A stretch of 64,000 nt of DNA from Escherichia coli. Its GTDB lineage: Bacteria; Pseudomonadota; Gammaproteobacteria; Enterobacterales; Enterobacteriaceae. The notes beneath the pieces were generated by a model. That model saw only the letters and a list, made by a program, of their open reading frames with translations. It was not told the DNA's origin and ran no database searches. Positions 2,836 through 49,204 of this stretch are shown here, piece after piece. Each line of letters starts with the position of its first letter. Positions within the stretch are counted from its first letter, which is position 1. The DNA is taken from the NCBI RefSeq assembly GCF_022846255.1, contig NZ_AP025682.1, one strand, 5' to 3'. The position numbers and the translations under genes are program-made.

Positions 2836-3603
2836 ATGTGGATTGGCATAATTAGCCTGTTTCCTGAAATGTTCCGCGCAATTACCGATTACGGGGTAAC
2901 TGGCCGGGCAGTTAAAAATGGCCTGCTGAGCATCCAGAGCTGGAGTCCTCGTGACTTCACGCATGACCGGCACCGTACCGTGGACGATCGTCCTTACGGC
3001 GGCGGACCGGGGATGTTAATGATGGTGCAACCCTTGCGGGACGCCATTCATGCAGCAAAAGCCGCGGCGGGTGAAGGCGCAAAGGTGATTTATCTGTCAC
3101 CACAGGGACGCAAGCTTGATCAAGCGGGCGTCAGCGAACTGGCAACGAATCAAAAATTGATTCTGGTGTGTGGTCGCTACGAAGGTATAGATGAGCGCGT
3201 GATCCAAACCGAAATTGACGAAGAATGGTCAATCGGCGATTACGTTCTCAGTGGTGGTGAGTTACCAGCAATGACGCTGATTGACTCCGTTTCCCGGTTT
3301 ATTCCGGGAGTACTGGGACATGAAGCCTCGGCAACGGAAGATTCCTTTGCTGAAGGATTGCTGGATTGCCCGCACTATACGCGGCCTGAGGTGTTAGAAG
3401 GGATGGAAGTTCCGCCAGTGTTACTGTCGGGCAACCATGCCGAGATACGTCGCTGGCGTTTGAAACAGTCGCTGGGCCGTACCTGGCTTAGAAGACCTGA
3501 ACTTCTGGAAAACCTGGCTCTGACTGAAGAGCAAGCAAGGTTGCTGGCGGAGTTCAAAACGGAACACGCACAACAGCAACATAAACATGATGGGATGGCG
3601 TAA
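2836..3603 (+). CDS. trmD: tRNA (guanine37-N1)-methyltransferase TrmD (255 aa)
   Basis: [13 protein letters not shown]...; position in the rpsP-rimM-trmD-rplS operon. Confidence 0.96.
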
Positions 3604-10439: not shown

Positions 10440-10528
10440 TTTTTGTTATCAATAAAAAAGGCCCCCCGATTTGGGAGGCCTTATTGTTCGTCTTCGCATT
10501 CTGTTTCACACGACGAAACGCCTCCCAT
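10440..10528 (-). promoter_or_regulatory. pheA transcription attenuator (terminator/antiterminator region)
   Basis: On the minus strand ggcctcccaaatcggggggcc hairpin followed by a U-run, lying between pheL and pheA. Confidence 0.7.
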
Positions 10529-10576
10529 TCAGGGGAAGGTAAAAAAGAATGCGAAGAAAAACGGTGTGTGTTTCAT
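10529..10576 (-). CDS. pheL: pheA leader peptide PheL (15 aa, [15 protein letters not shown])
   Basis: Minus-strand reading atgaaacacataccgtttttcttcgcattcttttttaccttcccctga; seven Phe codons; too short for the ORF track. Confidence 0.9.
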   Translation of the reverse strand: [15 protein letters not shown]

Positions 10577-10679
10577 GTTTGTTTCCTTAAGTGACTTTAG
10601 TACAGTACCCGTACTGTTTTCACGCTGTCAACAAAAAACGCGCCCGAAGGCGCGTTGGCGATACACTCAATATAAAGGA

Positions 10680-11075
<396 letters not shown>

Positions 11076-11254
11076 TCAAAATGTGTGATGGAAATCTCAT
11101 AATTTTGTCACTTTTTGTCAACGAATCTTTTTTGTGAGAAATCGCAGGAAGAGGTGTTTTTTTACTTGAGGAATATCTCAAAGCGAGCCATATTTGATGA
11201 GATCGATAGTGACTAAATCGCTTCAGTTTCACAACTAACAGAATAAAAAAACGG

Positions 11255-11267
11255 CAGCTCAAGGCTG
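11255..11267. repeat. IS4 target-site duplication, left copy (cagctcaaggctg)
   Basis: Exact 13-bp direct repeat of 12694..12706, immediately flanking the IS4 inverted repeat. Confidence 0.85.
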
Positions 11268-12693
11268 TAATGCCAGTCAGTTAAGCAACTGACTGGCTCT
11301 TTTTCGGGGCTGTGGGGTATTTCCAGGGCCTCTCCTTTACCACTCTCGGGAAGGCCCTTTCCCTTCTTGTCGGTAATTTCACAAGTTGTCCCATACTTGC
11401 AAGATCGCGCATCAGCTCCGGTATACGTCCCGGTGAAGCGCCCTGCAATGTCATCAGCATTCTCATCACCATTCCACATGATTCTGAGAAACTCAGTTGA
11501 TTCGGCCAGTAACCTTTCAGATGTTCCGCCATTTTAATCATCTGATATCTCACCAGATTATAAGCCAGTAAGACACCCCACAGCTCTTGCTCCACAAGCT
11601 CCGGTTTTTTACTTCTCAGCGTCAGCCTGCTCAGTTGCATCGTCTGTTTTATCTCCCTGTATCCCAGTTCGATTTCCCAGCGATGACTGTACAGATCCGC
11701 CATTTCTCCTCCGGGGAAGCGCATGGCGTCCGTCATCGACGTCAGCAGATGGCAGACTTTTCCTTTGCGCGTCACGGTCAGCAGGCGGGCTGTCACTTCA
11801 TTTCCCAGTCCCGGCCACTTTTTTCGTGCCTGCGGGCTGGTTTTCAGCTTCACCAGATGATCGCCTTTACCCAGTTTTCTGATCTCTTCATATTGCGCTC
11901 CCTTTCTGAGAGGTATCATCCAGTGGCGGTGTTCTCCCGCCAGGCTCCAGGCATTTAACAGTCCCAGTGAGTAATAACCTTTATCCATTAACGTCAGAGT
12001 GTTATCGCCGGTTTGTTCTATAAGTTGCTCAGCAAGCTCATTTTCGCTGTTCTTCATCGTGCCGAAGGCTGCAGCCGTCAGCAGATGGCTGGTCAGTTCC
12101 ATCTGGCAGACCATTTTGACCTGCGGGTAGAGCGCCGGGTTCCCGGCATGTGTCTGGCGGGGGAAGGCTGCATCGTTCTCTGGTGTATCCGGTGTGCGCC
12201 AGAACACACCATCGATGGCCAGCAGGGTCAGGCCGCACCAGTGCGGATGCGGCGTGGCGTTATGCCAGAGCTGCGCTGTTTTCGTGAACACGCGGCGGAC
12301 AGCCTCACTTCCCAGGCGCTGGCGGGCCTGAATAACGGCACTGGGGGCAACGAAGGGGCGATTGCCCGGCAGCATGATGTCCAGGCGATTCACAATCTGG
12401 TGAAGAGGTTCTTTACGCTCAAGCGCCATGCCAACAATACACCAGACCATCATTTCGAGGGGAAGACGGCGCTTGCGTAGCGTTACAGTACCTGATTCGG
12501 CAAGGCAACGAGAGATGAGTTCGGGGTCGAGGTAATCCCCCAGAGAAGTCAGTGGGTTACGCAGAGAATCGTAACGGGATACCAGATCAAGAGCCTGTCC
12601 AATGTGCATAAAAAAATCCGGAAACAAGTGAGCGTTTCCGGATTCTTACACAGCCACTGGATCGGTCAACTGATCCTTAACTGATCGGCATTA
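11268..12693 (-). mobile_element. Insertion sequence IS4 (1426 bp), intact
   Basis: Terminal inverted repeats taatgccagtcagttaag (left) and cttaactgatcggcatta (right); single transposase ORF; flanked by a 13-bp direct repeat. Confidence 0.9.
11281..12609 (-). CDS. insG: IS4 transposase InsG (442 aa from [10 protein letters not shown]; track ORF extends to 12627)
   Basis: DDE transposase; sequence recalled as IS4 transposase (…[14 protein letters not shown]… region). Confidence 0.9.
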
Positions 12694-12706
12694 CAGCTCA
12701 AGGCTG
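12694..12706. repeat. IS4 target-site duplication, right copy (cagctcaaggctg)
   Basis: Exact 13-bp direct repeat of 11255..11267. Confidence 0.85.
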
Positions 12707-12729
12707 CCGTTTTGTGTTTCAGGTTTCTG

Positions 12730-13467
12730 TTATGTATTGCTGCTGTTTGCGGCGATGATTTTCGCTACTTTTTCAGCTTGCGCATTCATCTGCATCTGAC
12801 GGTATGCATTTTCCATCAGCGGCAGCGCATCACGCGTAGCCTGGGTATCCGGATAGTCGCGCAACATGCCTTCTACGCGGTTAACGACAGCAACCCATGC
12901 ACCACGTTCTGTATAATACTCGGCAACGGAGTATTCATATTTCGCCAGACGATCTTTCAGGAATACCAGACGTTTGGTGGCATCGGTGGTGTACTGACTG
13001 TTCGGATAGCCGCGCACCAGTTTGGAAAAGTCACTAAACGCAGCTCGTGCATGTTGAGGATCGCGATCGCTACGGTCAACGCCAAAGAACCCTTGCAGCG
13101 CACTGTCATCCAGCGCCATATTGGTCAGGCCACGCATGTACATGACATAATCGATATTCGGATGGGTCGGGTTAAGGCGAATAAAACGATCGATGGCAGC
13201 CTGTGCTAACGGCAAATCGGCGTTTTTATAGTAGGCGTAGATGAGATCCAGCTGCACCTGCTGCGAATACGGACCAAACGGATAGCGATTATCTAACGCT
13301 TCCAGTTGCGTTATTGCCTGTCTCCAGTTACCGTCCTGCAGCTTTTGTTGTGCAGTCGCGTAAATTTCATTTGGCGGATTATCAGGTACTTCTTCCTTTG
13401 ACCCCGAGCAACCCGCCAAAAACAGGCTTAGTGTGGCGGCTGCCACCAGATATTTCATGCGCGTCAT
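12730..13467 (-). CDS. bamD: Outer-membrane protein assembly factor BamD/YfiO (245 aa)
   Basis: Lipobox LAGC; TPR-like repeats; [26 protein letters not shown]. Confidence 0.95.
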
Positions 13468-15310: not shown

Positions 15311-15371
15311 CCTAAAGAATCAAGACGATCCGGTACGCGTGATTTTCTTTTCACATTAATCTGGTCAATAA

Positions 15372-15405
15372 CCTTGAATAATTGAGGGATGACCTCATTT
15401 AATCT
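15372..15405 (+). promoter_or_regulatory. Probable sigma-32 heat-shock promoter of clpB
   Basis: cttgaa (-35-like) and cctcatttaa (-10-like, compare CCCCATNT) about 40 bp upstream of the clpB ATG. Confidence 0.5.
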
Positions 15406-15439
15406 CCAGTAGCAACTTTGATCCGTTATGGGAGGAGTT

Positions 15440-18013
15440 ATGCGTCTGGATCGTCTTACTAATAAATTCCAGCTTGCTCTTGCCGATGCCCAATCACTTG
15501 CACTCGGGCACGACAACCAATTCATCGAACCACTTCATTTAATGAGCGCCCTGCTGAATCAGGAAGGGGGTTCGGTTAGTCCTTTATTAACATCCGCTGG
15601 CATAAATGCTGGCCAGTTGCGCACAGATATCAATCAGGCATTAAATCGTTTACCGCAGGTTGAAGGTACTGGTGGTGATGTCCAGCCATCACAGGATCTG
15701 GTGCGCGTTCTTAATCTTTGCGACAAGCTGGCGCAAAAACGTGGTGATAACTTTATCTCGTCAGAACTGTTCGTTCTGGCGGCACTTGAGTCTCGCGGCA
15801 CGCTGGCCGACATCCTGAAAGCAGCAGGGGCGACCACCGCCAACATTACTCAAGCGATTGAACAAATGCGTGGAGGTGAAAGCGTGAACGATCAAGGTGC
15901 TGAAGACCAACGTCAGGCTTTGAAAAAATATACCATCGACCTTACCGAACGAGCCGAACAAGGCAAACTCGATCCGGTGATTGGTCGTGATGAAGAAATT
16001 CGCCGTACCATTCAGGTGCTGCAACGTCGTACTAAAAATAACCCGGTATTGATTGGTGAACCCGGCGTCGGTAAAACTGCCATCGTTGAAGGTCTGGCGC
16101 AGCGTATTATCAACGGCGAAGTGCCCGAAGGGTTGAAAGGCCGCCGCGTACTGGCGCTGGATATGGGCGCGCTGGTGGCTGGGGCGAAATATCGCGGTGA
16201 GTTTGAAGAACGTTTAAAAGGCGTACTTAACGATCTTGCTAAACAGGAAGGCAACGTCATCCTGTTTATCGACGAATTACATACCATGGTCGGCGCGGGT
16301 AAAGCCGATGGCGCAATGGACGCCGGAAACATGCTGAAACCTGCTCTGGCGCGTGGTGAATTGCACTGCGTAGGTGCCACGACGCTTGACGAATATCGCC
16401 AGTACATCGAAAAAGATGCTGCGCTGGAACGTCGTTTCCAGAAAGTGTTTGTTGCCGAGCCTTCTGTTGAAGATACCATTGCTATTCTGCGTGGCCTGAA
16501 AGAACGTTATGAGCTGCACCACCATGTGCAAATTACTGACCCGGCAATTGTTGCAGCGGCGACGTTGTCTCATCGCTACATTGCTGACCGTCAGCTGCCG
16601 GATAAAGCCATCGACCTGATCGATGAAGCAGCATCCAGCATTCGTATGCAGATTGACTCAAAACCAGAAGAACTCGACCGACTCGATCGTCGTATCATCC
16701 AGCTCAAACTGGAACAACAGGCGTTAATGAAAGAGTCTGATGAAGCCAGTAAAAAACGCCTGGATATGCTCAACGAAGAACTGAGCGACAAAGAACGTCA
16801 GTACTCCGAGTTAGAAGAAGAGTGGAAAGCAGAGAAAGCCTCGCTTTCTGGTACGCAGACCATTAAAGCGGAACTGGAACAGGCGAAAATCGCTATTGAA
16901 CAGGCTCGCCGTGTGGGTGACCTGGCGAGGATGTCTGAACTGCAATACGGCAAAATCCCGGAACTGGAAAAGCAACTGGAAGCCGCAACGCAGCTCGAAG
17001 GCAAAACTATGCGTCTGTTGCGTAATAAAGTGACCGATGCCGAAATTGCTGAAGTGCTGGCGCGTTGGACGGGAATTCCGGTTTCTCGCATGATGGAAAG
17101 CGAGCGCGAAAAACTGCTGCGTATGGAGCAAGAACTGCACCATCGCGTTATTGGTCAGAACGAAGCGGTTGATGCGGTATCTAACGCTATTCGTCGTAGC
17201 CGTGCGGGGCTGGCGGATCCAAATCGCCCGATTGGTTCATTCCTGTTTCTCGGCCCAACGGGTGTGGGGAAAACAGAGCTTTGTAAGGCGCTGGCGAACT
17301 TTATGTTTGATAGCGACGAGGCGATGGTCCGTATCGATATGTCCGAGTTTATGGAGAAACACTCGGTGTCTCGTCTGGTTGGTGCGCCTCCGGGATATGT
17401 TGGTTATGAAGAAGGTGGCTATCTGACCGAAGCGGTGCGTCGTCGTCCGTATTCCGTCATCCTGCTGGATGAAGTGGAAAAAGCGCATCCGGATGTCTTC
17501 AACATTCTGTTGCAGGTACTGGATGATGGGCGTCTGACTGACGGGCAGGGGAGAACGGTCGACTTCCGTAATACGGTCGTCATTATGACCTCTAACCTCG
17601 GTTCCGATCTGATTCAGGAACGTTTTGGTGAACTGGATTATGCGCACATGAAAGAGCTGGTGCTCGGTGTGGTAAGCCATAACTTCCGTCCGGAATTCAT
17701 TAACCGTATCGATGAAGTCGTCGTCTTCCATCCGCTGGGTGAACAACACATTGCGTCGATTGCGCAGATTCAGTTGAAACGTCTGTACAAACGTCTGGAA
17801 GAACGTGGTTATGAAATCCACATTTCTGACGAGGCGCTGAAACTGCTGAGCGAGAACGGTTACGATCCGGTCTATGGTGCACGTCCTCTGAAACGTGCTA
17901 TCCAGCAGCAGATCGAAAACCCGCTGGCACAGCAAATACTGTCTGGTGAATTGGTTCCGGGTAAAGTTATTCGCCTGGAAGTTAATGAAGACCGGATCGT
18001 CGCCGTCCAGTAA
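15440..18013 (+). CDS. clpB: Chaperone/disaggregase ClpB (857 aa); internal GTG at 15884 corresponds to the known ClpB-80 start
   Basis: [24 protein letters not shown]...; two AAA+ modules (GEPGVGKT and GPTGVGKTE Walker A motifs). Confidence 0.96.
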
Positions 18014-18452: not shown

Positions 18453-19994
<1,542 letters not shown>

Positions 19995-20079
19995 CCTTAA
20001 AGAAGCGTACTTTGCAGTGCTCACACAGATTGTCTGATAGAAAGTGAAAAGCAAGGCGTCTTGCGAAGCAGACTGATAC

Positions 20080-20155
20080 GTCCCCTTCGTCTAGAGGCCC
20101 AGGACACCGCCCTTTCACGGCGGTAACAGGGGTTCGAATCCCCTAGGGGACGCCA
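20080..20155 (+). tRNA. gltW: tRNA-Glu (anticodon UUC), spacer tRNA of the rRNA operon
   Basis: gtccccttcgtctagaggcccaggacaccgccctttcacggcggtaacaggggttcgaatcccctaggggacgcca; ends in encoded CCA. Confidence 0.95.
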
Positions 20156-20387
20156 AGCGTTAACTGATGAGGTCAAACCTCCCAGGGGACGCCACTTGCT
20201 GGTTTGTGAGTGAAAGTCACCTGCCTTAATATCTCAAAACTCATCTTCGGGTGATGTTTGAGATATTTGCTCTTTAAAAATCTGGATCAAGCTGAAAATT
20301 GAAACACTGAACAACGAGAGTTGTTCGTGAGTCTCTCAAATTTTCGCAACACGATGATGAATCGCAAGAAACATCTTCGGGTTGTGA

Positions 20388-23291
<2,904 letters not shown>

Positions 23292-23389
23292 ACAACGCCG
23301 AAGATGTTTTGGCGGATAGAGAGAAGATTTTCAGCCTGATACAGATTAAATCGACAGGTCATAACGAGACGTGTTGATAAAACAGAATT

Positions 23390-23509
23390 TGCCTGGCGGC
23401 CGTAGCGCGGTGGTCCCACCTGACCCCATGCCGAACTCAGAAGTGAAACGCCGTAGCGCCGATGGTAGTGTGGGGTCTCCCCATGCGAGAGTAGGGAACT
23501 GCCAGGCAT
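23390..23509 (+). rRNA. rrfG: 5S ribosomal RNA (120 nt)
   Basis: tgcctggcggccgtagcgcggtggtcccacctgaccccatgccgaactcag...gggaactgccaggcat. Confidence 0.96.
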
Positions 23510-40647: not shown

Positions 40648-41603
40648 TGAAGCAACTTTGGTTTGCCATGTCATTAGTGACAGGTAGCCTGTTATTCTCT
40701 GCTAACGCCTCGGCCACTCCCGCGTCCGGGGCGTTATTACAGCAGATGAACCTGGCCAGTCAGTCACTGAATTACGAGCTGTCATTCATCAGCATCAATA
40801 AACAGGGTGTTGAGTCTCTGCGTTATCGACATGCACGCCTCGATAACCGTCCTCTTGCACAATTGTTGCAAATGGATGGCCCGCGCCGGGAAGTGGTACA
40901 GCGCGGCAATGAGATCAGCTATTTTGAACCGGGACTTGAACCGTTCACGCTTAATGGCGATTACATTGTTGATTCTCTGCCATCGCTCATCTATACCGAT
41001 TTCAAACGCCTTTCTCCTTACTACGACTTTATCTCCGTCGGGCGCACGCGTATTGCTGATCGTCTTTGCGAAGTTATTCGCGTGGTTGCCCGAGATGGTA
41101 CACGCTACAGCTACATCGTGTGGATGGACACCGAATCGAAATTACCGATGAGGGTTGATCTCCTTGATCGCGATGGTGAAACGCTGGAACAATTTCGCGT
41201 GATTGCTTTTAATGTCAATCAGGATATCAGCAGCAGTATGCAGACGCTGGCGAAGGCAAATTTGCCGCCGTTGCTTTCTGTTCCTGTAGGTGAAAAAGCC
41301 AAATTCAACTGGACTCCAACCTGGTTGCCACAGGGTTTTAGCGAAGTTTCCAGTAGTCGACGTCCGCTACCGACGATGGACAACATGCCTATTGAATCAC
41401 GTCTCTATTCCGACGGATTATTCAGCTTCTCGGTAAACGTTAACCGCGCTACGCCATCGAGCACCGATCAGATGTTGCGCACCGGACGCAGAACCGTCAG
41501 TACAAGCGTACGTGATAACGCCGAAATCACCATTGTCGGTGAACTGCCGCCGCAAACGGCGAAACGCATTGCCGAGAATATTAAGTTCGGGGCAGCGCAA
41601 TGA
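40647..41603 (+). CDS. rseB: Sigma-E regulatory protein RseB (318 aa)
   Basis: Signal peptide; synteny in rpoE-rseABC. Confidence 0.95.
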   Translation: MKQLWFAMSLVTGSLLFSANASATPASGALLQQMNLASQSLNYELSFISINKQGVESLRYRHARLDNRPLAQLLQMDGPRREVVQRGNEISYFEPGLEPFTLNGDYIVDSLPSLIYTDFKRLSPYYDFISVGRTRIADRLCEVIRVVARDGTRYSYIVWMDTESKLPMRVDLLDRDGETLEQFRVIAFNVNQDISSSMQTLAKANLPPLLSVPVGEKAKFNWTPTWLPQGFSEVSSSRRPLPTMDNMPIESRLYSDGLFSFSVNVNRATPSSTDQMLRTGRRTVSTSVRDNAEITIVGELPPQTAKRIAENIKFGAAQ

Positions 41604-42079
41604 TCAAAGAGTGGGCTACCGTCGTCTCCTGGGAAAACGGGCAGGCGCTGGTTAGTTGTGATGTTAAAGCCTCATGCAGCAGCTGCGCTTCACGCGCCGG
41701 TTGCGGTAGCCGCGTGTTGAATAAACTTGGCCCGCAAACCACGCATACCATTGTCGTACCCTGTGATGAACAGTTAGTGCCGGGGCAAAAAGTAGAATTA
41801 GGAATCGCCGAAGGCAGCCTGCTTAGCTCCGCATTACTGGTTTATATGTCGCCGTTGGTGGGACTATTCCTCATCGCTTCACTATTTCAGCTACTCTTTG
41901 CTTCAGATATTGCAGCATTATGCGGTGCGATTCTCGGTGGCGTTGGTGGATTCCTGATTGCACGTGGCTGCTCTCGAAAGTTTGCTGCCCGGTCTGAATG
42001 GCAACCGATCATCTTAAGCGTGGCCTTGCCGCCTGGCCTTGTGCGATTTGAAACATCTTCGGAAGACGCGAGCCAGTGA
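41600..42079 (+). CDS. rseC: RseC (159 aa)
   Basis: Cys-rich N-terminus and two TM helices; synteny. Confidence 0.93.
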   Translation: MIKEWATVVSWENGQALVSCDVKASCSSCASRAGCGSRVLNKLGPQTTHTIVVPCDEQLVPGQKVELGIAEGSLLSSALLVYMSPLVGLFLIASLFQLLFASDIAALCGAILGGVGGFLIARGCSRKFAARSEWQPIILSVALPPGLVRFETSSEDASQ

Positions 42080-42276
42080 TTTCACTGGCTTTGTTGCATT
42101 TTGCATAACAAATGCGAGGACGTTTCCAGATACCACAATCCATACGGTATGAACATTTCCTCGCCTCAATGTTGTAGTGTAGAATGCGGCGTTTCTATTA
42201 ATACAGACGTTAAGCTCAGAACAGCGACTTCTAAAAGCCTGGTTAACCGGGCATTAAGGCACAATAATCATACTTT

Positions 42277-44076
<1,800 letters not shown>

Positions 44077-45112: not shown

Positions 45113-45308
45113 TTATTTATGAGATAAATCTCCCGTGGCTAACGACATCCCCCGTCGTTGTGTATAGAATATTCCCCCGAAGTTTAAGGTTGGCACCTCC
45201 AGGTTGCCACGGCACACGAAACAGCGTTGGTCCCCATATACCGGTAAACTGAAACTGCAGCGAAGCAGTTAGCAGAGCCATGTATATCAGGTCTGTTTCG
45301 TGTGCTGA

Positions 45309-46921
<1,613 letters not shown>

Positions 46922-48784: not shown

Positions 48785-48809
48785 AAAATACCGTTCTCTT
48801 TATAAAGTA

Positions 48810-48845
48810 AAACCCCCGAACTGGTAAGGAACGGGGGTTTTCAGT
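48810..48845 (+). terminator. Terminator after acpS
   Basis: cccccg ... cggggg inverted repeat followed by TTTT. Confidence 0.55.
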
Positions 48846-49204
48846 TTACAACTTTAATTTTGTGCAGCACACGATTCCAACGGAAATAATTATGGATCAA
48901 TTTCGTTGACCTGTACAAGCAACTTGCAATCTCTGACATAAAAAACGCGAGCCTTTACGAAGAAATCGACATTGATGAAAAGATTAACGTGACCGCTTTT
49001 TGATAAGTACATTAAAATCGGTTTCATTATTGGCAATTTTGCTGTGCTTTACACCATGCCACTGAATTCCCCCATTGAAACGAGTGGTGTCGTCAAAGCT
49101 CTGGTGTGGAGTGCAGCACTCGATTCCAATAACTCGCACGTTCAGTTTTGGGGAGATGTAAGGGCTAATCTGAACGGCTGCATTCCTTGTTTAAGGAAAA
49201 ACGA

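Follow-up and report, generated by a model that had tools for sequence, protein, structure and literature searches.

The closest described counterpart of the element analysed here is the annotated IS4 of Escherichia coli K-12 MG1655 (insG, b4278; NC_000913.3, positions 4502090–4503515), which lies between yjgZ and nanX, is bracketed by a 12-bp duplication, ATCTTGGTTCTG, and encodes a 442-aa transposase within 1426 bp. Klaer et al. in 1981 and Mayaux et al. in 1984 are said to have found IS4 inserted into galT and into the attenuator of pheST and to have arrived at the target consensus AAA-N20-TTT; the pheST insertion reportedly lies in a terminator or attenuator hairpin. The K-12 site, AAA-taggcatcttggttctggtg-TTT, fits this consensus, as does the target in the DNA described below, AAA-acggcagctcaaggctgccg-TTT. 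Set against the preference known from the 1980s, the insertion reported here follows the same preference and shows no difference in kind.

The IS4 subgroup comprises elements of 1400–1650 bp with direct repeats of 10–13 bp and a target-arm specificity that has been called "spectacular" (De Palmenaer et al. 2008, PMC2266710), and 8 new IS4 insertions were recorded in a mutation-accumulation study (PMC5009759). Other insertion sequences are also directed to palindromes: IS1397 and ISKpn1 enter REP/BIME elements, and ISRm22, a member of the IS4 family, enters REPs (Tobes and Pareja 2006, PMC1525189). These elements likewise use intergenic hairpin-forming palindromes, not genes, whereas the IS4 target considered here, a predicted intrinsic terminator, is unique and does not belong to the dispersed REP repeats.

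The present copy was found in a 64-kb window (the whole stretch of E. coli DNA that was analysed), between bamD and raiA. It shares with the K-12 copy the length of 1426 bp, the terminal repeats, including their 16/18 mismatch pattern, and the 442-aa transposase. It differs from the K-12 copy in its location, in its duplication of 13 bp and by five point differences (1421/1426 positions identical).

An intact IS4 between bamD and raiA

The insertion sequence spans positions 11268–12693 (1426 bp), with its transposase gene on the minus strand, co-directional with bamD and raiA. Its ends are TAATGCCAGTCAGTTAAG on the left (IRL, 11268–11285, the "AG" variant) and the reverse complement of TAATGCCGATCAGTTAAG on the right (IRR, 12676–12693). 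Both terminal repeats begin with TAATGCC, the same as in the annotated K-12 IS4 (the subgroup end signature is -AATR--------WTW). The 18-bp inverted repeats named in the initial annotation are indeed present, with the qualification that they match each other at 16 of 18 positions.

The transposase (InsG) is encoded at 11281–12609 on the minus strand, as defined by the list of open reading frames, its translation and a profile match. It has 442 residues from the ATG, and the frame stays open up to a TTG at 12627, which gives the 448 residues used in the RefSeq annotation. Against the NCBIfam profile NF033592 (IS4 family transposase), the protein scores 304 bits, with a cut-off of 115, over profile positions 3–332 of 332. 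The length, the inverted repeats, the single uninterrupted transposase reading frame, the flanking duplication and the near-identity to known copies that characterize the IS4 subgroup are thus all present at 11268–12693. The element is 100% identical to copies in IAI39, CE10, SMS-3-5 and many other E. coli genomes; both ends and the reading frame are intact, and identical copies occupy many sites in E. coli genomes. The initial annotation had described an intact IS4 with a perfect 13-bp duplication, a description confirmed by the 1426-bp length, the ends, the transposase reading frame and the match of the empty site given below.

The left end of IS4 exists in two forms. The form found in the window (11268–11297), TAATGCCAGTCAG..., has a 16/18 terminal repeat and a perfect 11-bp subterminal hairpin. 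The other form, TAATGCCGATCAG... (L002, positions 3302–3331), has a perfect 18/18 repeat and two mismatches in the hairpin. Both forms are present at the raiA–bamD site.

Target duplication and the uninterrupted site

The direct repeat CAGCTCAAGGCTG is found at 11255–11267 and 12694–12706 and nowhere else in the 64-kb window; the identity does not extend on either side, and each 13-bp copy directly adjoins an IS4 end. By chance, two fixed positions would share 13 bp with a probability of about 1.5e-8. Removal of the element together with one repeat copy gives AAAAAAACGGCAG-CTCAAGG-CTGCCGTTTT, and the rejoined sequence around the insertion point reads ...AATAAAAAAACGGCAGCTCAAGGCTGCCGTTTTGTG.... 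The target that had been proposed, a palindrome resembling a terminator hairpin between an A run and a T run, can be recognized in this reconstruction.

Over 200 bp, the reconstruction without IS4 agrees at every position (100% identity) with Nissle 1917 and the type strain ATCC 11775, among others, and it is covered over at least 80% of its length in 5007 of 5426 complete E. coli genomes. The raiA–bamD spacer of K-12 MG1655 is the same empty site, uninterrupted in the alignment, and the single IS4 of K-12 is located elsewhere, as the initial annotation had stated. Since removal of the element and one repeat copy restores an uninterrupted site, the 13-bp repeat is a true target-site duplication. 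Its length is 13 bp at this insertion and 10–14 bp in other IS4 copies.

Assignment of the interrupted hairpin to bamD

All genes around the insertion lie on the minus strand, and transcription proceeds in the order bamD (13467 to 12730), hairpin, a spacer of about 230 bp, raiA (11021 to 10680), pheL and pheA. Both genes next to IS4 are intact: bamD (12730–13467) encodes 245 residues, and raiA (10680–11021) encodes 113. The TAA stop codon of bamD is 23 nt from the right repeat copy and 36 nt from the end of IS4, so that the distance of 24 bp given in the initial annotation is essentially right for the repeat, the IS end itself being the more distant of the two. On the other side, the start codon of raiA lies 246 bp downstream of the IS4 end, which places the insertion 233–246 bp upstream of that codon.

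In the empty site of Nissle 1917, a consensus scan of the minus strand finds an 11-pair hairpin, AAAACGGCAGCCTTGAGCTGCCGTTTT, followed by TTTATTCTGT, 23 nt after the bamD stop codon. This hairpin folds at −16.5 kcal/mol, and seven T come after it on the minus strand. Because bamD lies upstream, both genes are on the minus strand and the hairpin precedes the seven T on that strand, the split hairpin is, as judged from the sequence, the intrinsic terminator of bamD and not that of raiA. In the window, the raiA-side half (11245–11267, minus strand, AAAAAAACGGCAGCTCAAGGCTG) retains the 3′ stem arm, the loop and the seven-T tract and includes the left repeat at 11255–11267; the bamD-side half (12694–12713, minus strand) consists of the 5′ stem arm and loop and includes the right repeat at 12694–12706.

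This assignment corrects the annotation of the hairpin, which belongs to bamD rather than raiA by the reading above, and two claims do not survive it. The statement that the insertion separates raiA from its terminator had the orientation wrong: raiA has its own intrinsic terminator at 10656–10637 on the minus strand, identified by the terminator scan both in the window and in Nissle 1917, and this is unaffected by the insertion. Sense read-through into the essential bamD, which had also been suggested, is impossible with bamD upstream on the minus strand. What the insertion can change is the 3′ end of bamD transcripts and transcription towards raiA.

Several features lie around raiA. The sRNA RaiZ is annotated in K-12 as ending in the raiA-terminator region. 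Upstream of raiA, at approximately 11084–11099, a candidate CRP-like motif, TGTGA-N6-TCTCA, can be read by eye in a region unchanged by the insertion. An Rfam scan places the Phe leader at 10452–10577.

Recurrent occupation of the bamD–raiA spacer

IS4 lies at bamD–raiA in the window's orientation in 317 of the 5426 complete E. coli genomes, as found with a query made up of IS4 and 300 bp on either side at a coverage of at least 80%; IS4 alone makes up 70% of this query, so a match has to reach into the flanks. A synthetic query in which IS4 was turned round, searched at the same coverage of at least 80%, identified 70 further genomes of the 5426 with the opposite orientation, which was confirmed by hand in NCTC86. 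The site is thus occupied in 387/5426 genomes, or about 7% of complete E. coli, and holds 387 of the approximately 5500 IS4 copies in these genomes. In the RefSeq annotation of occupied genomes, the bamD–raiA spacer holds an "IS4-like element IS4 family transposase". Iso00225, ZH063, ST95-32 and E2348/69 carry IS4 at the identical insertion point, NCTC86, IAI39 and CE10 carry it in reverse orientation, and other occupied lineages differ from the window by a 14-bp duplication, the 18/18 inverted-repeat variant, the opposite orientation or an internal deletion.

Forward insertions were classified by loop allele (GG or GGG) and IRL variant (TAATGCCAG... or TAATGCCGA...), with 40-mers spanning the left junction. 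The window's type, with GG loop and AG IRL, is found in 39 genomes, and GG loop with GA IRL in 13; the GGG loop is combined with AG IRL in 189 genomes and with GA IRL in about 80. The four classes sum to about 321, consistent with the 317 obtained with the full-length query. Counts from a 59-mer at the right junction (581 matches at or above 80%) were not used, as they are inflated by partial matches at other IS4 sites, e.g., yicI. In the GGG lineages the extra G is present in both repeat copies and gives a 14-bp duplication, and the GG allele gives one of 13 bp. Both loop alleles also exist as empty sites, the intergenic spacer of K-12 (270 bp) being 1 bp longer than that of Nissle 1917 (269 bp). 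With two orientations and two target alleles, IS4 must have inserted independently at least four times, each time at the same staggered-cut positions. By this comparison of junctions, the bamD–raiA spacer is a recurrent natural hot spot and not the place of a strain-specific event, and the earlier wording of "strain-specific IS activity" was overstated for a site that is occupied so widely, by several independent insertions.

No exact match to the window was found among the genomes of the collection. The closest genomes, 99.4% identical over 25 kb, are ST95-like B2 strains with the window's junction type. Our literature search found no publication on IS4 at raiA–bamD.

In E. coli 2013C-4282 (NZ_CP027579.1, 4838174–4839032), the left and right IS4 junctions at raiA–bamD are only about 0.86 kb apart, which suggests, from the junction sequences, an internally deleted IS4 that persists at the site. 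The gene in this strain is annotated just as "IS4 family transposase", and several other genomes with the window's junction are annotated alike.

In the closest genomes (NZ_CM142666.1, NZ_CP051719.1 and others), about 27.7 kb correspond to the 25-kb stretch at 1–25000 of the window and include an IS3-like IS1397 transposase; the window appears, from this alignment, to be without the IS1397 copy carried by its relatives. The Rfam scan of the window returned ordinary E. coli features and nothing unusual, namely an rRNA operon (16S, tRNA, 23S, 5S), AsrC antisense to rseC, the rncO leader, the OhsC sRNA and RyfD, with coordinates grouped as 18453–23507, 41564–42395, 45179–45393, 48804–48881 and 15321–15459.

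Target preference of IS4 in other genomes

For a wider view of IS4 targets, one representative genome per species was scanned for the last 22 bp of IS4, and the flank beyond each match was extracted. This yielded 113 distinct IS4-end junctions from other genera of Gammaproteobacteria, including Aeromonas, Budvicia, Kosakonia, Pectobacterium, Photorhabdus, Silvania and Dryocola. A T run (at least four T starting 11–24 nt from the IS end) is present at 73% of the 113 junctions versus 7% of controls, the latter being random 45-mers from the same loci. A short palindrome at the start of the flank is found at 72% of the junctions versus 15% of controls, and both features occur together at 57% versus 1.1%. 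Complete IS4 copies elsewhere have whole targets such as AAAAAAACCGCCTGAAACGGCGGTTTTTTT or AAAAAAGCTGCCATTGGCAGCTTTTTTT, with duplications of 10–14 bp at the top of the hairpin; duplication lengths were taken only from rows with an element length of approximately 1398–1428 bp. Judged from these flanks, IS4 seeks out hairpins that resemble terminators and lie between an A run and a T run; the terminator of bamD is a model case of such a target. The survey of 113 junctions agrees with the target specificity described by De Palmenaer et al. (PMC2266710).

At yicI and further loci, IS4 junctions align with the IS4 end plus its bamD-side flank at 88–92% identity across some 50 bp; the separate targets of IS4 are therefore alike in sequence as well as in shape. 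In Kosakonia oryziphila REICA_142 (L061–L080) and in the metagenome-assembled genome CTSoil_132 (L006–L018), 13–20 or more contigs each carry an exact IS4 terminus, from which we conclude that IS4 has expanded strongly in some hosts other than E. coli. Almost all insertions in these two genomes lie beside hairpin-plus-T-run sequences. A 265-bp contig of the Methylobacterium mesophilicum NBRC 15688 assembly (NZ_BPQU01000128.1, L059) holds an IS4 end followed by ATCTTGGTTCTGGTGTTTGTAACAAACTATCAGC..., a flank identical to the K-12 IS4 site between yjgZ and nanX; by its sequence, the contig looks like K-12 contamination of the M. mesophilicum assembly.

Predicted transcription through the insertion

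In the account that we favour, the IS4 transposase picks pseudo-palindromic sites, composed of an A-run, stem, loop, stem and T-run, with staggered cuts 10–14 bp apart around the loop. At the present locus, IS4 has transposed into the stem-loop of the bamD terminator, duplicating 13 bp at the top of the hairpin, and the native terminator has thereby been destroyed. Beside bamD, only a 5-bp stem without a U tract is left at the occupied site, where the scan of the minus strand now comes up without a terminator; the remnant on the raiA side has a 4-bp stem only.

The element itself carries two hairpins near its ends. Near the IRR, at 12644–12610 on the minus strand, AATCCGGAAAC-N8-GTTTCCGGATT, with GCTCACTT as the N8 loop, has a T tract behind it, with the ATG of the transposase immediately beyond. 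The stem of this hairpin is 11–15 bp long, and RNAfold gives −18.8 kcal/mol versus −16.5 for the native bamD terminator. The terminator scan makes no call here; our tentative reading is that it extends the stem into the T run, through A/T pairs at the stem base, and that the hairpin then fails the T-tract rule. At the IRL end, on the plus strand at 11272–11307, the terminator scan and the fold both find a subterminal hairpin with a perfect 11-bp stem followed by TCTTTTTCGG, which, as modelled, resembles a terminator that would act on transcripts entering IS4 at this side.

In the window's orientation, bamD transcripts would pass 36 nt to the IS end, enter via the IRR and meet the hairpin at 12644–12610 after about 50 nt. 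Most would stop within IS4, at the U tract ending approximately 119 nt after the stop codon, so that the 3′ UTR of bamD is predicted to be about 119 nt instead of about 57 nt. In the reverse-orientation insertions, bamD transcripts would instead meet the IRL-end hairpin at 11272–11307.

The same hairpin at 12610–12644 would mask the ribosome-binding site of the transposase in transcripts that come from outside. A candidate transposase promoter (TTGACC-16 nt-AAGAAT with an upstream TG, 12642–12669, minus strand) was picked up by the consensus scan, which reports 3 promoter-like sites versus 3.7 in shuffled sequence, so that the candidate is no better than chance and serves as a lead only. Since this candidate overlaps the 5′ arm of the hairpin, IS4's own transcript would carry the hairpin in incomplete form, and transcripts from outside would be terminated or masked. 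Such shielding would resemble the way in which the insertion sequences IS10 and IS50 are protected against activation from outside.

No U tract follows the hairpin behind the transposase stop codon, and low-level transcription from IS4 towards raiA may occur. By the same account, raiA retains its promoter region, coding sequence and own terminator, and little or no phenotype is therefore expected.

Alternative explanations

A native duplication of other origin, with IS4 merely adjoining it, was weighed for the 13-bp repeat. The repeat is partly palindromic, so a local duplication is imaginable, but nothing else was found in its favour: the repeats directly flank the IS4 ends, excision of the element and one copy gives exactly the single-copy sequence of 5007 genomes, and where the loop allele has an extra G, that G is present in both copies. 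Two copies of the repeat without IS4 were seen in none of the genomes; the 5007 have a single copy. This explanation is already refuted by the empty-site alignment, and we give it practically no credence. Nor do we think that all occupied genomes go back to one ancient insertion spread by descent and recombination, without any hot spot. Most occupied genomes do fall into a few junction classes; however, opposite orientations would need excision and reinsertion, the GG and GGG alleles are each duplicated within their own repeats, and the same two loop alleles are found as empty sites, which together make a single origin highly improbable.

It might also be asked whether the frequency of about 7% reflects a selected regulatory effect, such as altered stability of bamD mRNA through the new 3′ UTR, or raiA being driven or insulated by the element. 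The insertion is common (387/5426 genomes), some clonal groups with a single junction type are large (189 genomes in the largest), and the 3′ UTR of bamD is predicted to grow from ~57 to ~119 nt. Yet both orientations occur, whose regulatory effects would differ, copies with an apparent internal deletion are retained at the site, IS4 selects hairpins that resemble terminators wherever it is found, the proximal upstream region of raiA is unchanged at least 233 bp from the insertion, and the large groups are explained by clonal inheritance. Selection of this kind we regard as unlikely, if less so than the two preceding alternatives. With high confidence, we favour the account in which a canonical IS4 entered the bamD terminator by its normal target choice, with the 3′ end of bamD transcripts now predicted inside IS4.

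Implications

The element is known, its behaviour is known and the site is annotated in hundreds of public genomes; the insertion is, in this respect, ordinary, and matters little. It is usable as a lineage marker and offers an example of a target-specific insertion sequence placed harmlessly behind an essential gene. IS4 copies at bamD–raiA can also be substrates for rearrangement. In Shigella sonnei lineage 2, an inversion of about 45 kb is reported to start at raiA, with IS4-family transposases on its flanks (PMC12795559), which suggests that an IS4 copy beside raiA served as recombination substrate there.

We further consider, as a tentative proposal that we rate at somewhat below an even chance, that IS4 is a dedicated "terminator-homing" element which supplies a substitute terminator: it would insert in terminator loops, and each of its ends carries a terminator-like hairpin that faces inward. 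The preference for such targets has long been known; a limited literature search did not turn up the notion that the terminator lost to IS4 is replaced by IS4 itself. If the proposal is true, the upstream gene would regain a terminator within approximately 40–120 nt in either orientation, and transcription from outside would be kept away from the transposase gene. This would explain why IS4 insertions directly behind essential genes such as bamD are tolerated and recur.
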